From the NCBI GenBank assembly GCA_947573405.1, contig CANPFW010000001.1, positions 20,322 through 84,321 of the forward strand: a stretch of 64,000 nt of DNA, written 5' to 3'. The notes below the pieces were generated by a model. It made no database searches. It saw only the letters and a program-made list of their open reading frames with translations, and was not told the DNA's origin. Of the stretch, positions 3,112 through 10,602 are shown piece after piece; position 1 is the stretch's first letter; each line of letters begins with the position of its first letter. The translations under genes were made by a program, and so were the position numbers. This DNA comes from an uncultured Clostridia bacterium (GTDB taxonomy: Bacteria > Bacillota > Clostridia > Oscillospirales > CAG-272).

Positions 3112-3184
3112 GGAAGATATATGTGATTTGCATGCCACTGAATCCGGTGAATATGAATTAAAAAATGATGCTTGGTTGCCAGAT

Positions 3185-3228
3185 GGTATACCAAGTGACA
3201 TACCAACGGTATACCAAATGGGTACCCA
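3185..3228. repeat. Cluster of short direct repeats GGTATACCAA / CATACCAA / GGTATACCAA / GGTACCCA
   Basis: Read directly at 3185-3194, 3199-3206, 3208-3217 and 3221-3228. GGTATACC is itself palindromic. The cluster sits at the presumed left end of the island. Confidence 0.4.
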
Positions 3229-3234
3229 GGTTAG

Positions 3235-3440
3235 GTTAGTATAGGTAAGGATAATATATTATGCGCACCGGATGAACCGGTACGCGAAACAAAACCCGAA
3301 AAACAAGGAACTTCATCACCGGAAAAGCCAAAAAACAGCAAACATAAATACGGCGAATATGAAAACGTACTGCTAAGTGACGGAGAACTGGACAAGCTGA
3401 AGCACCGTTTCCCGAACTATCTGGAACGGATTGATAAAGA
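3235..3440 (+). pseudogene. Fragment resembling the C-terminal part of a phage/ICE replication (DnaD-like replisome organizer) protein
   Basis: Open frame without a start codon reads ...KHKYGEYENVLLSDGELDKLKHRFPNYLERID. I recall this motif from the tail of phage replication proteins. It diverges and stops soon afterwards. Confidence 0.35.
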
Positions 3441-3669
3441 ATCCCCTTCTATGCAAATATGCAGAGAGGGGGATATTTGTTATATAAAACGCACGATTGG
3501 AATGCCCCTTATTGGCACATAATCTGTCCTGATTTCAACGTTTGTATTTGGTGCATAGTTGCAACAAGTAGTTGCATTTGTACAGATACATCAAAAGCAG
3601 AATATAGGGCGTTTCAGACAGTTTTAACCGCCTGATTTCAAAACATGCAGTTTTTTAAATGAAAAACGA

Positions 3670-6027
3670 GTGTCCTTACAAGGATTCTCAGATCCTATAA
3701 GGACACTCCGCATGGGACAGATGACAGGAATTTCCCGGGGAGACGGCACAGGTTACAGCATGTCCTATACATCCTTCCATCAGCTGCAAGGAATTCAAGT
3801 AACTCAGAAGGATAATCTGGTTATCTATCGTTACAAGGAAGGCAACGGCCGTCTGCGGGGAATCTATTACGGAGATGGCAGCCGCGTGGATGTCAAATAT
3901 ACTGCCCAGGGACAGATAGCGTCTGAAACATGGTATAATAGTGAAAATACACAAATTTCCCGTTATAAATATGTATACGACAGCGAGGGAAATCTTTCCT
4001 CCAGTATTGATGTTTTGTCTAAAAAGATATATAATTATACATATGAGGGAGGGGTACTGAAGCGTTCTACAGAAAGCGAGATTGAGATTGACGCAAATGA
4101 GATCATCCGCTCTAAGGACGTTATCCATACAACGCAGTACTTCTATGATGAAAAGGGAACGCTGCTCCGAAAAACAATAACCGACAAAGCAGGCAGTGAC
4201 TTCACCTACCGCTATACCGAACTGGAAAGCCAGAGCGTGACTGCCTCCTTTACTGCAGGCGGCAAGACGGTGCAGTCTCACTCTAAGGCGGACGGTTTCG
4301 GCAGAATGATCTTTGACGAGCTGCGGTTGGGCACAGGCTTCTTGAACCGGCAGTTTACCTATCATGACGGCGTGATCAGCCAAACCCATGAAGAAAACGG
4401 CAAAAAGATTTCCAGCCCCACAACCAATCTGGTGAAGGAAATCGTCTATTCCGACGGCAGAACGATTGCTTATGAATATGATCCGGAGGAGCGGATTTCC
4501 AAGGTCACCGACAGTGTGGACGGCGTAACCGAATACACCTATGACGCACTGGGACAGCTTACCAGTGAAACGGTGAACGGTGTCAAGACAGCGTATGTGT
4601 ATGACGGCTATGGCAATTTGCAGTATAAAGGCGTCTGCAATGGGGAAGGTGTTGTGCCGCTGTCTGACAGAATTTGGTATTCTTATGGTGATCCCTGCTG
4701 GGACGATCTGCTGACAGCATACAACGGACGGAGCATCCGATATGACAAGTGCGGCAACCCTATTAGCTATCTGGGTCACACTCTCACCTGGGAAAAAGGC
4801 AGACAGCTAAAGTCTTTTGACAGCAATACTTACACCTATAATGCAAACGGTATTCGTACTGGCAAGACGGTAGATGGCGTGCAGCACACCTATACACTGG
4901 ACGGCACGAACATTATCAAAGAAGTTTGGGATAACAACACGCTGATCCCACTGTACGATAACGCCGGCACAGTTTGCGGTATTCTTTACAACGACACGCC
5001 GTATTATTTCGTAAAGAATCTTCAGGGCGACGTTCTCTCCATTGCCGATGCAAACGGCGACACGGTAGCGCGGTACCGTTACGACGCATGGGGCGACTGT
5101 ACTATCGTATCCGATACCAGCGCAGACGGCATTGCCGTGGTGAACCCCTACCGCTACAGAACGTATTACTACGATTCTGAAATCGGCATGTACTACCTTC
5201 AGTCCAGATACTTCGATCCGGACACCGGTCGGTTTATCAATGCCGATGATGCAAATTATGTTGCGTCTAACGGGTATAATTTGTTTTCATATTGCGGAAA
5301 CAATCCGGTTTTGGGGCGTGATCCTTCTGGACGGTGCAATGAATTATATGGACCTACTACAGCCACTCTTGGATTTATCCATATGTCTGCTACAGAAGAC
5401 GATACCATTCGAAGAATTATTAGTGATTTTCAAGCTTGCTTTGACTATACAAAAATACGCAGACAATGGATCAAAGGAGCAGATGGGAATGCACTTCGTG
5501 AGCTTCAGCAAGCGTGGGCTTATGTTGACGGCTGCACCTTCCTGATTATTGATACGCACGGTTCTCCAAAAAGACTGTCTTCGAAAGAACCAGCTCCAGT
5601 ATGGTCTATTACACCCCATGATACCTTTTCTCTTCCCAATTCGTTCAACCCCGCCAGAAAACTGAATGTGGATTTTGTGTTATTAACCGGATGCAATACT
5701 GCTCATTTAGACTATACGGACACAATTGCGGCAATTTTGTCAAAACATATCACAGGGGTTCTTGTAGCCAGCGATGGGAATGTAGAAATAGATCCATATG
5801 CAAAAAACAGTGACGGACAAAAGGTATTATTTACTTCCTTTGAGGGTGAATATTGGAGGAAACACCGAGACGATGTTTGGTCTAAAAGAAAAACAAACAG
5901 TGGATGGATTGTTTTCCGTAATGGCAAACGGATTATGACTACAAATAAAAAGGAATTTACAATTAAAAGTCTTTTCAAATATATGGATCGTATGGGTTAT
6001 TATAGAGGATATCCTGTCAGAGAATAA
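3670..6027 (+). CDS. RHS/YD-repeat polymorphic toxin, N-terminally truncated, with a variable C-terminal toxin tip
   Basis: Many YDxxGN repeats (YDSEGNL, YDEKGTL, YDALGQL, YDGYGNL, YDAWGD). Core-end motif YYLQSRYFDPDTGRFINAD ... NNPVLGRDPSGR at 5320-5334. A unique 230-aa tail follows. GTG start sits inside a hairpin, and there is no N-terminal secretion or trafficking domain. Confidence 0.85.
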   Translation: MSLQGFSDPIRTLRMGQMTGISRGDGTGYSMSYTSFHQLQGIQVTQKDNLVIYRYKEGNGRLRGIYYGDGSRVDVKYTAQGQIASETWYNSENTQISRYKYVYDSEGNLSSSIDVLSKKIYNYTYEGGVLKRSTESEIEIDANEIIRSKDVIHTTQYFYDEKGTLLRKTITDKAGSDFTYRYTELESQSVTASFTAGGKTVQSHSKADGFGRMIFDELRLGTGFLNRQFTYHDGVISQTHEENGKKISSPTTNLVKEIVYSDGRTIAYEYDPEERISKVTDSVDGVTEYTYDALGQLTSETVNGVKTAYVYDGYGNLQYKGVCNGEGVVPLSDRIWYSYGDPCWDDLLTAYNGRSIRYDKCGNPISYLGHTLTWEKGRQLKSFDSNTYTYNANGIRTGKTVDGVQHTYTLDGTNIIKEVWDNNTLIPLYDNAGTVCGILYNDTPYYFVKNLQGDVLSIADANGDTVARYRYDAWGDCTIVSDTSADGIAVVNPYRYRTYYYDSEIGMYYLQSRYFDPDTGRFINADDANYVASNGYNLFSYCGNNPVLGRDPSGRCNELYGPTTATLGFIHMSATEDDTIRRIISDFQACFDYTKIRRQWIKGADGNALRELQQAWAYVDGCTFLIIDTHGSPKRLSSKEPAPVWSITPHDTFSLPNSFNPARKLNVDFVLLTGCNTAHLDYTDTIAAILSKHITGVLVASDGNVEIDPYAKNSDGQKVLFTSFEGEYWRKHRDDVWSKRKTNSGWIVFRNGKRIMTTNKKEFTIKSLFKYMDRMGYYRGYPVRE

Positions 6028-6042
6028 CGGAGGAATTCGGAG

Positions 6043-9087: not shown

Positions 9088-9114
9088 CCCCGGCGTAATG
9101 CGTCGGGGATTTGT
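9088..9114 (+). terminator. Terminator-like hairpin, paralog of the one at 6669
   Basis: ccccggcg (9088-9095) pairs with cgtcgggg (9101-9108) with one mismatch. It has the same position relative to the following rhs fragment as at 6669. Confidence 0.45.
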
Positions 9115-9125
9115 ACAGTACCAAT

Positions 9126-9340
9126 GAAATCTTTCCTCCAGTATTGATGTTTTGTCTAAAAAGATATAATATTATACATATGAGGGAGGGGTACTGAAGC
9201 GTTCTACAGAAAGCGAGTAGGATGCAATACTGCTCATTTAAACTATAAAGACACAATTGCAGAACATTTATCAAAACAGATTACAGGTTATCTTGTAGCA
9301 AGTGATGGTACCGTAGCAATATCGTCAACGAAAAAGAATA
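9126..9340 (+). pseudogene. Deletion-derivative rhs remnant: an early YD-repeat segment joined directly to the Cys-region of a toxin tip
   Basis: 9126-9217 is nearly identical to 3989-4080. 9221-9340 is a diverged copy of 5689-5830 (GCNTAHLNYKDTIAEHLSKQITGYLVASDG versus GCNTAHLDYTDTIAAILSKHITGVLVASDG). Confidence 0.6.
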
Positions 9341-10457
9341 GTGATAATCAAAAACGGAAGAACTGGAAAAGCATATTCAGATCATAGAGGGCAATGGGTG
9401 CTAACTCCGCTGGAACAGGGAAACAGATTCAATGATCTGTATACGGTCAGACACAAGCAGAGGTGCGCAAAAAGCTTTCCCGGATCAGCACAGAAATTGA
9501 TGATGGTATTTATAAGGATCCGTCAAAAATTACTGTAGGTGAATGGCTTGATATTTGGCTGTCTGAATACATCGGCAACGTAAAGCCCAATACAGCGGCA
9601 ATCTATGCAATAAAAGTGAACAATCATTTAAGGCCGGCATTTGGAGCTGTTAAGCTGACTGCTATCTCTGCACCAATGACATGCAGAAAGGGAAAAAGAG
9701 CGGCAAGGAATATACCTAAGGCAATAAAGGATTTACATGGAGTGCTTCACAAGGCTTTGCAACAGGCGGTACAGATAGGATATTTACGTTTTACCCCTCC
9801 GACAATTGTACGCTTCCAAGAGTTAAATGGCGGGATATAAGACCTTTTGAGAATAATGAAATGTCTGAATTCCTGCAAAGAATTCAAGGCGATATATATG
9901 AACTGCTTTATATTGTTGCACTGTTTACAGGCATGCGCAAAAGCGAATTGATTGGATTGACATGGGACTGTGTGGATTTTATGCGTGGAAGCATAACTGT
10001 AAAGCAACAGCTGCAGCTATCCCCGGACGGTTCCTACTACTTTACCACGCCTAAAAATGACAAATCCCGCATAATAAACGTTGCGCCTACGGTCATAGAT
10101 GCCCTTAGGAAGCAGCTACGCAAACAAATAGAAGAACGAACCGCCGCTGACGAGCTATGGCAACAAGGTGAATTTCAGAATATCGTATTTACGAATGAAT
10201 TCGGCGGGCATATGAAGCCAAAGACCATACATTAACGGTTTAAGGCAATTGTAACTGAAATGGGTTTGCTGGACATGCGGTTCCATGATCTGCGTCACAC
10301 ATTTGCCACACGTGCATATGAGTTGGCGTTTGACATTCCGACATTGTCAGAGATACTGGGACATGCGCAAAAATCCACTACGGAAAATATGTATGGGCAT
10401 TCTTTGGATGATACCAAAAAGAAAGCCATGGCAAAGTTCAATAGAGGATTTTTATAA
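9341..10457 (+). pseudogene. Tyrosine recombinase (phage integrase family), disrupted
   Basis: SAM-like N-domain (ITVGEWLDIWLSEYIGNVKPNT). Catalytic region (LFTGMRKSELIGLTWDCVDF; HDLRHTFAT; LGHAQKSTTENMYGH). In-frame TGA at 9433, frameshift near 9790-9800, in-frame TAA at 10233. Confidence 0.85.
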
Positions 10458-10549
10458 TGAATATTATGCATAGAAAGGATAGTAATGAATATGAGTGAAA
10501 AATACGTATAGCGGTACAAATAGCGGTCAAAAACAGTATTTCAGACCGT

Positions 10550-10596
10550 TTTCAAAAAAGGAAAAAACCCTTGAAAACTCAATGTTTTCAAGGGTT
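10550..10596 (-). terminator. Rho-independent terminator of the tRNA operon
   Basis: aacccttgaaaac (10566-10578) pairs with gttttcaagggtt (10584-10596). On the minus strand a T-run follows (the A-run at 10550-10567). Confidence 0.6.
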
Positions 10597-10602
10597 CTAC
10601 GA

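Follow-up and report, generated by a model that had tools for sequence, protein, structure and literature searches.

When an AT-rich block of DNA ends against a tRNA gene and holds both an integrase and a row of rhs-derived genes, is it an island built for Rhs toxins, or have the toxin genes come to rest in the debris of a mobile element? We addressed this question for a locus beside the initiator tRNA-fMet gene in a 64,000-nucleotide stretch (the window) of a metagenome-assembled genome (MAG) from an uncultured gut Clostridiales bacterium; the relatives with which it was compared are all MAG or metagenome contigs. A sequence-only reading had described the locus as a fixed island dedicated to an Rhs toxin/immunity array, in which a main rhs gene and its downstream orphans form a reservoir of competition toxins. 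Our analysis makes it likely that the block is instead a composite wreck in which orphan cassettes are stranded, rather than an island built for rhs. An element with a tyrosine integrase once inserted into tRNA-fMet, probably in the anticodon loop. What is left of it, and of a related element of the type seen on contig L012, is a DnaD-like gene fragment, a non-coding piece and a hybrid integrase with many lesions, and between these remnants lies a 5.7-kb string of four rhs cassettes, all of them orphans.

Orphan rhs cassettes and the element remnants around them

The largest open reading frame (ORF) of the string encodes 785 amino acids (aa) and matches RHS_repeat (PF05593, 8.2e-17; TIGR01643, 1.5e-15) and, at residues 471-554, the RHS-associated core (TIGR03696). 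At its core end the autoproteolytic DPxG motif ...YFDPDTGRFINAD...NNPVLGRDPSGR is visible, with a variable tip after it. This ORF and the small gene downstream of it (6043-6642) had been read as a main rhs gene with its partner. Both exist as ORFs; however, the first 17 codons of the larger one have no homology to any relative, and alignments begin only at residue 18, a conserved internal methionine (...FDN followed by MTEIVRGDG) that corresponds to residue ~450-600 in database proteins of 1165-1366 aa and to ~450-1440 in full-length proteins of 1165-2150 aa. In the genomes of relatives the frame extends a further 1000-1440 codons upstream, giving proteins of ~2000-2150 aa with a DNRLRE domain. 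The 785-aa ORF lacks this N-terminal region, to which the trafficking domain and the beginning of the shell belong; the 5' two-thirds of the gene are gone. On contig L011, an equivalent 711-aa ORF (P0007) comes last among the orphans that follow a 1984-aa main gene and is preceded by a hairpin, the same layout as ahead of cassette 1. Homology from residue 18, longer relatives and the L011 layout together identify the "large gene" of the window, at the level of sequence, as an orphan. No full-length main rhs gene is found within the 64-kb window, and no other rhs gene either.

The 785-aa ORF has thousands of relatives, in Oscillospiraceae, Acutalibacteraceae and other "Eubacteriales" gut MAGs. 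The best relative outside the species, in a search of 5.8 billion proteins, is 56% identical, and since the closest full-length relative is this distant, no recombination partner is visible. A core-profile scan of genome contigs for the main rhs gene of the species yielded 77 loci, none above 57% identity. An integrase trace lies within 10 kb at 1 of these 77 loci and a tRNA at 3, and scans of viral contigs, in which the family is nearly absent, gave one distant rhs match. Since family loci are so seldom near integrases and hardly occur on viral contigs, their association with an island is peculiar to this site; the flanks of the block, which match the rhs-free element of L012, likewise lend no support to a block dedicated to rhs.

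In one relative, two rhs genes (1130 and 769 aa) are directly followed by genes for a phage holin and for an endolysin of the Amidase_2 type (L097 3-8493). The L011 array with P0007 adjoins a large gene of the FtsK/SpoIIIE family and several small genes in a row (L011 21837-22136 and neighbours), a neighbourhood that may hint at type VII-like secretion for the rhs family.

L012 is a small integrative element beside tRNA-Trp, without rhs. It encodes a helix-turn-helix regulator, DnaD-like and DnaC-like helicase loaders (phrog_8489 at 2.7e-78 and phrog_50 at 1.3e-52 in PHROGs), an M78 peptidase, Fic and RelA/SpoT proteins and an integrase. The phage replication-gene fragment seen at the left of the block in the sequence-only reading is indeed there: it matches the inside of the 254-aa L012 gene annotated in PHROGs as "DnaD-like helicase loader" and, compared with L012, is inverted relative to the integrase. 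The L012-like DNA then continues to ~3660-3666 in the rhs haplotype. Both block ends (3137-3666 and 9410-10297) match L012 and therefore come from one element family.

Three ORF pieces of the integrase (9463-10457) match Phage_int_SAM_3 and Phage_integrase in Pfam, and the frame-corrected protein is 77% identical to P0121, the intact 392-aa integrase of L012. The resemblance to this type extends up to ~10297, at the HxLRHT box; beyond it the pseudogene is of the type found on metagenome contig L095, with 95.5% identity. The two stop codons reported earlier (9433 and 10236) are present, but the damage exceeds the single frameshift reported with them: the first ~32 codons are gone and at least three frameshifts occur, near 9666, 9716 and 9797. 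In L095 (16-364; window 10291-10649), the end of the integrase is followed by a 145-nucleotide (nt) spacer, by only the 3' 47 nt of tRNA-fMet, and then by unrelated DNA. These 47 nt, the element-side part, equal window 10603-10649 and run from the anticodon loop to the 3' end of the tRNA; the layout resembles an attP and would place the crossover in the anticodon loop. The window pseudogene lies 145 nt from tRNA-fMet.

The direct repeat that would mark an att pair was sought in the window, and no second copy of the tRNA-fMet 3' part was found (25-mer with up to 3 mismatches; sensitive blastn, word size 7). The far att site has therefore been lost, which rules out excision of the remnant. With its integrase destroyed and a second att copy missing, the block is almost certainly immobile, which bears out the description of a foreign, decayed, integrase-associated block abutting tRNA-fMet that no longer moves. 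A candidate tRNA-Leu att site at 3267-3287 (exact 14-mer at 3274; 21/23 with gaps, T-arm) falls inside the DnaD-like coding fragment, is conserved in L012 and was dismissed as chance. A metagenome scan with the integrase for element relatives carrying rhs returned only 5 loci, none with rhs, and the viral-contig scans yielded no integrase relative. On another metagenome contig (L093 1732-3174), a 33%-identical integrase stands beside the same tRNA-fMet/tRNA-Leu(UAA) pair, which seems to be a recurrent integration site.

We gathered conspecific contigs by exact-protein look-up with the neighbouring MiaA. Window positions 1-3665 and 10603 onward are common to all of them at ~99% identity. The rhs block is carried by L005 and L006, that is, by about 3 of 17 contigs with collapsed places counted, while in about 14 of the 17 its place is taken by 2.1 kb of DNA with RhuM-like, hypothetical and Fic ORFs. 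The block is polymorphic between strains, and the earlier term "fixed" does not apply. Strains were also to be compared for an empty tRNA-fMet site: the MiaA look-up among the 17 contigs revealed two haplotypes only and no empty site, and an exact look-up with the PtsI-like flank protein for the same purpose matched no record. Strains that lack the array have no rhs trace at the site. The DnaD-like fragment is found in both haplotypes; in the alternative one, the Fic gene is 95% identical to that of L012, and non-coding L012 homology extends to L012 4973, beyond the break of the rhs form. The short terminator between breakpoint and tRNA differs between the haplotypes, and the right-hand boundary is therefore the tRNA itself. 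On L002 the alternative haplotype occupies 6655-8775, with RhuM-like, hypothetical and truncated Fic ORFs and L012-like pieces, without an integrase.

Table 1. Positions of the features discussed, in window coordinates
Feature	Coordinates	Strand	Evidence or remark
Sigma-70/sigma-A consensus promoter, TTGACA-16-TATAAT	3084..3111	-	Perfect, 12/12 match
Internal fragment of DnaD-like helicase-loader gene	3137..3434	+	89.6% DNA identity to L012 7152-6845
Non-coding piece of L012-type element	3434..3666	+	81.7% identity to L012 4636-4853
Hairpin ahead of cassette 1	3668..3708	+	-23.2 kcal/mol, z = -5.3
785-aa rhs ORF	3670-6027	+	RHS_repeat, Rhs_assc_core matches
Cassette 1 rhs core, C-terminal ~540 residues, ending ...NNPVLGRDPSGR	3721..5331	+	Homology and TIGR03696
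Embedded promoter-like motif, cassette 1	4007..4035	+	TTGATG-17-TATAAT, in rhs frame
Toxin tip CT1	5332..6027	+	His75 at nt 5557-5559, Cys120 at nt 5692-5694
imm1, 199-aa gene	6043..6642	+	GGAGG ribosome-binding site, N-terminal membrane helix
Terminator hairpin with T-run, closes cassette 1	6669..6691	+	-26.7 kcal/mol
Cassette 2 head, rhs core fragment, ~residues 90-108	6703..6757	+	76% identical to 3985-4039
Embedded promoter-like motif, cassette 2 head	6725..6753	+	TTGATA-17-TATAAT, 11/12
Tox-WTIP domain, last ~64 residues of ~155-aa tip	6790..6987	+	Pfam match in ORF 6667-6987
imm2, intact 159-aa immunity gene of Tox-WTIP module	7007..7486	+	Keeps full length and ribosome-binding site
Hairpin closing cassette 2	7517..7559	+	-27.6 kcal/mol
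Cassette 3, 3' end of rhs core, ~residues 397-537	7564..7997	+	7564-7863 86% identical to 4910-5209
Toxin tip CT3, hydrophobic, ~133 aa	7998..8398	+	Frameshift in A6 run at 8016-8021
Small ORFs of cassette 3	8395..9040	+	59-aa ORF overlapping CT3 stop; two-helix membrane ORF 8590-9040
Hairpin closing cassette 3	9088..9108	+	Related to 6669-6691
Cassette 4 relic	9122..9345	+	9126-9217 98% identical to 3989-4080, core ~residues 90-120
Embedded promoter-like motif, cassette 4	9144-9170	+	Spacer shortened to 15 nt
Tyrosine integrase pseudogene, hybrid	9410..10457	+	84% identity to L012 8959-9868 over 9410-10297
Initiator tRNA-fMet, tRNA-Met(CAT)	10603..10680	-	Initiator features read from sequence

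The AT-rich composition, the minus-strand promoter and the initiator tRNA of the sequence-only reading are all confirmed. The G+C content of 3666-10555 is 0.41, against 0.48 in the left flank and 0.50 in the remainder of the window, and the onset of the low-GC stretch already falls near 2450, left of the block. The promoter at 3111-3084, the sole perfect match in the region, is a boundary marker outside the island and reads towards miaA. It sits within a 221-aa ORF call (2468-3133, minus strand), and translation of that gene therefore probably begins at the ATG at 3052; the resulting 194-aa form is the gene call on some conspecific contigs. The gene is low in GC, lies immediately upstream of miaA on the same strand and may itself be foreign; searches of PHROGs, Pfam and NCBIfam with the 221-aa ORF gave no match. 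The tRNA-Met combines a C1:A72 mismatch with three G-C pairs closing the anticodon stem and is therefore the initiator; tRNA-Leu(UAA) comes after it. Near the left end of the window, a 44-nt stretch (666-708) has an inverted copy, 95% identical, ~4.6 kb past that end, as seen in conspecific contigs (e.g., L002 17034-17077).

Toxin tips, immunity genes and their decay

The string is punctuated by four hairpins (3668-3708, 6669-6691, 7517-7559 and 9088-9108; -17 to -28 kcal/mol, z -3 to -6), the first of which is probably the terminator of a lost upstream cassette. The make-up of an orphan, a core fragment that leads into a distinct tip and then a small gene, is present in the array, and internal repeats and deletion joins connect the cassettes. 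Only cassette 1 (core residues 1-537, CT1 and imm1) and the imm2 gene of cassette 2 are intact. Cassette 2 has had its core end and cleavage motif deleted, together with the first ~80 residues of its tip. After frame correction, the tip of cassette 3, CT3, shares 43% identity with a tip in L076 that is in frame, and the two-helix membrane ORF behind CT3 appears frameshifted. In cassette 4, the core is joined at 9218-9220 to a CT1-like fragment (81% identical to 5689-5790), which begins at the GCNTAH Cys motif and then runs into the truncated integrase. Of the four toxin tips, three carry a truncation or frameshift, and decay is under way in cassettes 3 and 4 as well as in the toxin of cassette 2. 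The three further rhs pieces and hairpins of the sequence-only reading hold up, except that the third piece (9122-9345) is fused to the integrase and has no small ORFs.

A near-identical terminator hairpin (CTCCGCA...TGCGGAG, then TTTTTCT) stands ahead of orphan heads in different species-level genomes (L021 ~13940-13975, L037 ~12630-12665, L054 ~12570-12605, L011 9950-9995), and whole cassettes, including the upstream junction, therefore seem to move between genomes.

Sequence evidence identifies the rhs-derived pieces as real toxin/immunity cassettes, as had been proposed, because one of them contains a Tox-WTIP match and its immunity gene has a counterpart beside a Tox-WTIP Rhs protein elsewhere. 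The Tox-WTIP domain (PF15654) scores 52.3 bits against a gathering cut-off of 25, covers profile positions 9-79 of 79 and shares 51% identity with the tip of P0002, a full-length Rhs protein. The gene directly after P0002 in L096 is also 159 aa long and aligns with imm2 over the full length (31% identity, E = 3e-25), which supports imm2 as the cognate immunity gene; imm2 has no match in PHROGs, Pfam or NCBIfam.

The tip of cassette 1, CT1, has no sequence match in Pfam, NCBIfam or the PDB. Its relatives number only 50 among 1.8 billion representatives and are located at the C-termini of RHS and TSP3-repeat proteins. W61, H75, C120, G148 and G190 are invariant in the family (H75 and C120 across 20 sequences). 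In the AlphaFold model (mean predicted local distance difference test, pLDDT, of 83), strands 69-73 and 114-117 precede H75 and C120, respectively, and the best structural match is Tce1 (9qpe_G, E = 7e-4), followed by caspases, with template-modelling (TM) scores of only 0.47-0.58. CT1 is a new toxin-tip family, predicted to be a His/Cys protease whose fold may resemble that of caspases and the cysteine protease domain (CPD; clan CD). Tce1 and Tce2 of P. aeruginosa are putative TcdB-CPD-like cysteine proteases (PMC13323088). The gene behind CT1, imm1, is a putative CT1 immunity gene by position only, and searches of PHROGs, Pfam and NCBIfam returned no family for it. P0058 gave no pairing for the two: its tip differs, and its neighbouring gene is unrelated to imm1.

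All 146 substitutions between the window and L006 fall within 4500-7250, and none elsewhere. This 2.7-kb patch, in which divergence is ~5% while the flanks show 0%, extends over the core end, CT1, imm1 and the Tox-WTIP module. With all differences in one patch, the toxin/immunity segment was therefore imported by recombination. The ratio of non-synonymous to synonymous substitution rates (dN/dS) in the patch is 0.17-0.42 (imm1 0.37, imm2 0.17), suggesting that cassette 1 and imm2 evolve under purifying selection.

A promoter-like motif within the rhs core

Cassettes 1, 2 and 4 each retain a promoter-like motif inside rhs core sequence, which the core fragment of cassette 3 lacks. Across 60 distinct rhs-family sequences, the codons at this position read TTGACA or TTGACT, then a spacer of 17 nt, and TATAAT or TATACT. 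The motif is conserved in 63 of 68 family sequences (loci L014-L090) and is the sole conserved promoter-like site in the 540-codon core, with 74 promoter-like hits in family cores on the forward strand versus 9 on the reverse strand. It occupies core residues ~96-106, ~440 codons upstream of the core end and cleavage motif, and the residues encoded by its codons read S-[ILV]-D-[IM]...K-E-Y-[NT]-Y.

Codon choice at the site departs strongly from background. The codon preceding Asp ends in TT in all 60 sequences (36% background, p = 3e-27), and Asp is GAC in 56 of 60 (49%, p = 5e-13). In the second hexamer, Tyr is TAT in 58 of 60 (52%, p = 5e-14), Asn is AAT in 39 of 39 (45%, p = 4e-14) and Thr is ACT in 18 of 18 (17%, p = 2e-14). 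A control Tyr two codons downstream is encoded by 31 TAT versus 29 TAC. Among 111 conserved two-fold columns, the two hexamer codons of the promoter rank 1 and 2 for codon skew. Random pairs of sequences share just 58% of two-fold codons, and relatedness is therefore not the cause of the pattern.

In other genomes, the heads of orphans are concentrated at residues 77-113, a short distance ahead of the motif, and in six of these genomes the order is a terminator hairpin with T-run, then 40-55 nt, then the -35 hexamer. For the other cluster of orphan heads (residues 311-358), no second embedded promoter is conserved. These patterns lead us to favour, with some reserve, a sigma-A promoter written into the shell coding sequence of this Clostridia rhs family, its bases held at synonymous sites by purifying selection. 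Orphan cassettes would be cut preferentially just upstream of it and end in a terminator, and the spreading unit would be a self-transcribing cassette of promoter, core remainder, tip, immunity gene and terminator. Such a unit would explain why both deletion relics keep exactly the 55-90-nt promoter fragment. With the conserved promoter-like motif in the kept head fragment, each cassette looks like a promoter-to-terminator unit that probably keeps the immunity genes transcribed. Internal rhs promoters near the toxin tip have been shown experimentally in Salmonella and enterohaemorrhagic Escherichia coli (EHEC) (PMC7043789, PMC7618764).

Competing accounts and related systems

In the account of stranded orphans, the string would be the last part of an rhs array that has no ~2000-aa main gene at this site, and the junctions at ~3666 and 9345-9410 would have been made through illegitimate joins and deletions. 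The cassettes would deliver no toxin, because both the N-terminal delivery part and a close full-length partner are absent. Each cassette with a head fragment may form its own transcription unit, from embedded sigma-A promoter to terminator hairpin, with transcripts running from ~4042 to the terminator at 6691 in cassette 1 and from ~6760 to 7559 in cassette 2. The surviving activity would most likely be transcription of imm1 and imm2, possibly together with the CT1 tip, and its outcome would be either protection from neighbours with matching Rhs toxins or an addiction-like (toxin-antitoxin-like) retention of the cassettes. Several points weigh against this account. The order of the rearrangement events is not recoverable, and a full-length rhs gene could sit in an unassembled part of the genome, MAGs breaking at repeats. 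L095 is a low-coverage metagenome contig, and imm1 has neither a homologue of known role nor evidence of pairing. The dN/dS values depend on one recombined patch with small counts and may reflect selection in an earlier host, and the -35 hexamers of the window (TTGATG, TTGATA) are weaker than the TTGACA of the family.

The last two points lend themselves to a bleaker account, in which nothing in the wreckage functions, the intact ORFs and low dN/dS go back to selection in a former host and the promoter motifs are without effect in this genome. The many lesions, the minority haplotype, a diverged patch that could be a ready-made import and the departure of the -35 hexamers from the family consensus would all fit. 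We nevertheless regard it as unlikely: a 2.3-kb ORF and two immunity ORFs are still open, whereas frameshifts have built up in their neighbours, the relics of cassettes 2 and 4 both retain exactly the promoter-bearing fragment, and imm2 retains its full length and ribosome-binding site. A distinctly poorer chance attaches to the fixed tRNA-fMet island for an Rhs system, in which a main gene and orphan tips form a recombination reservoir of competition toxins. An integrase adjoining the tRNA, an AT-rich block, repeats of 86-98% identity common to the cassettes that could recombine, and an intact 785-aa ORF and imm1 under purifying selection speak for it. However, that ORF lacks the 1000-1440 N-terminal residues of its full-length relatives, just ~3 of 17 conspecific contigs carry the block, three of the four tips are broken with no relative above 56% identity, and the family is rarely linked to integrases (1/77) or tRNAs (3/77); the main-gene and "fixed" claims are largely refuted. 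Very improbable, finally, is an older chromosomal rhs array beside or into which the element inserted, deleting the 5' part of the main gene. The rhs ORF does begin 3 nt past the breakpoint with L012-like DNA, and arrays of this family are normally chromosomal; yet cassette 1 has its own upstream hairpin and starts at the same residue as ready-made orphans elsewhere, and was therefore already an orphan before the join. Moreover, L012-like DNA flanks the array on both sides and runs unbroken past the breakpoint in the other haplotype, and array-free strains show no rhs trace at the site.

In tRNA-targeting islands and prophage remnants, the integrase abuts the 3' end of the tRNA, the element supplies the 3' part of the tRNA, composition is atypical and content varies between strains; work by Williams from 2002 is reportedly an example for such integrative islands. 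The stranded-cassette locus shares the integrase at the tRNA 3' end, the 47-nt tRNA part from the anticodon loop, the composition and the strain variation. It differs in having no flanking direct repeat, a dead integrase that is a hybrid of two lineages, a closest intact relative (L012) at tRNA-Trp rather than tRNA-fMet, and an alternative remnant in place of an empty site. Acquired interbacterial defence (orphan-immunity) islands of gut Bacteroidales, said to have been described by Ross et al. in 2019, are alike in their gut hosts, in immunity genes without a working cognate toxin and in mobile DNA beside a tyrosine recombinase. Unlike those islands, the present locus keeps toxin fragments and only two intact immunity genes, and it has a decayed phage-type integrase and no repeated recombination sites between genes.

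Among toxin systems, the main-plus-orphan rhs loci of enterobacteria such as Salmonella Typhimurium and EHEC (PMC7043789, PMC7618764) likewise have orphans in which a core fragment is followed by a distinct tip and an immunity gene, without the delivery part. In those loci, promoters inside the ORFs can express tip and immunity gene independently, in a toxin-antitoxin manner; for the window, sequence conservation suggests a similar arrangement. The Clostridiales locus has no main gene, a Gram-positive-type host and full-length relatives with a DNRLRE domain, and its motif lies ~440 codons upstream of the cleavage motif, whereas Salmonella P2-type promoters are found just upstream of the PxxxxDPxGL motif. 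CT1 shares with Tce1/Tce2 and the cysteine protease domain of TcdB/MARTX (PMC13323088) an invariant His and Cys, each after a beta strand, and an "LLGCN"-like motif around the Cys; it shows no detectable sequence similarity and is an Rhs tip rather than Hcp cargo. In the comparison with Tox-WTIP (PF15654) toxins, the neighbouring 159-aa immunity gene is conserved; in contrast to an intact tip, the window domain has neither the start of the tip nor the end of the Rhs core, so that it can be neither released nor delivered.

As a locus, the array of rhs orphans with its dead tRNA-linked element in this gut Clostridiales bacterium is of an ordinary kind. It shows clearly how orphan toxin/immunity cassettes can lie stranded in mobile-element debris with no main gene and vary between strains, and it bears on the question of whether gut bacteria retain such cassettes for immunity or addiction rather than attack. 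CT1 adds a rare, unnamed family of Rhs toxin tips with a caspase/CPD-like His/Cys signature. The putative family-wide promoter constrained at synonymous sites offers a testable hypothesis for how orphan cassettes may be expressed in Firmicutes, extending the findings in Salmonella and EHEC.

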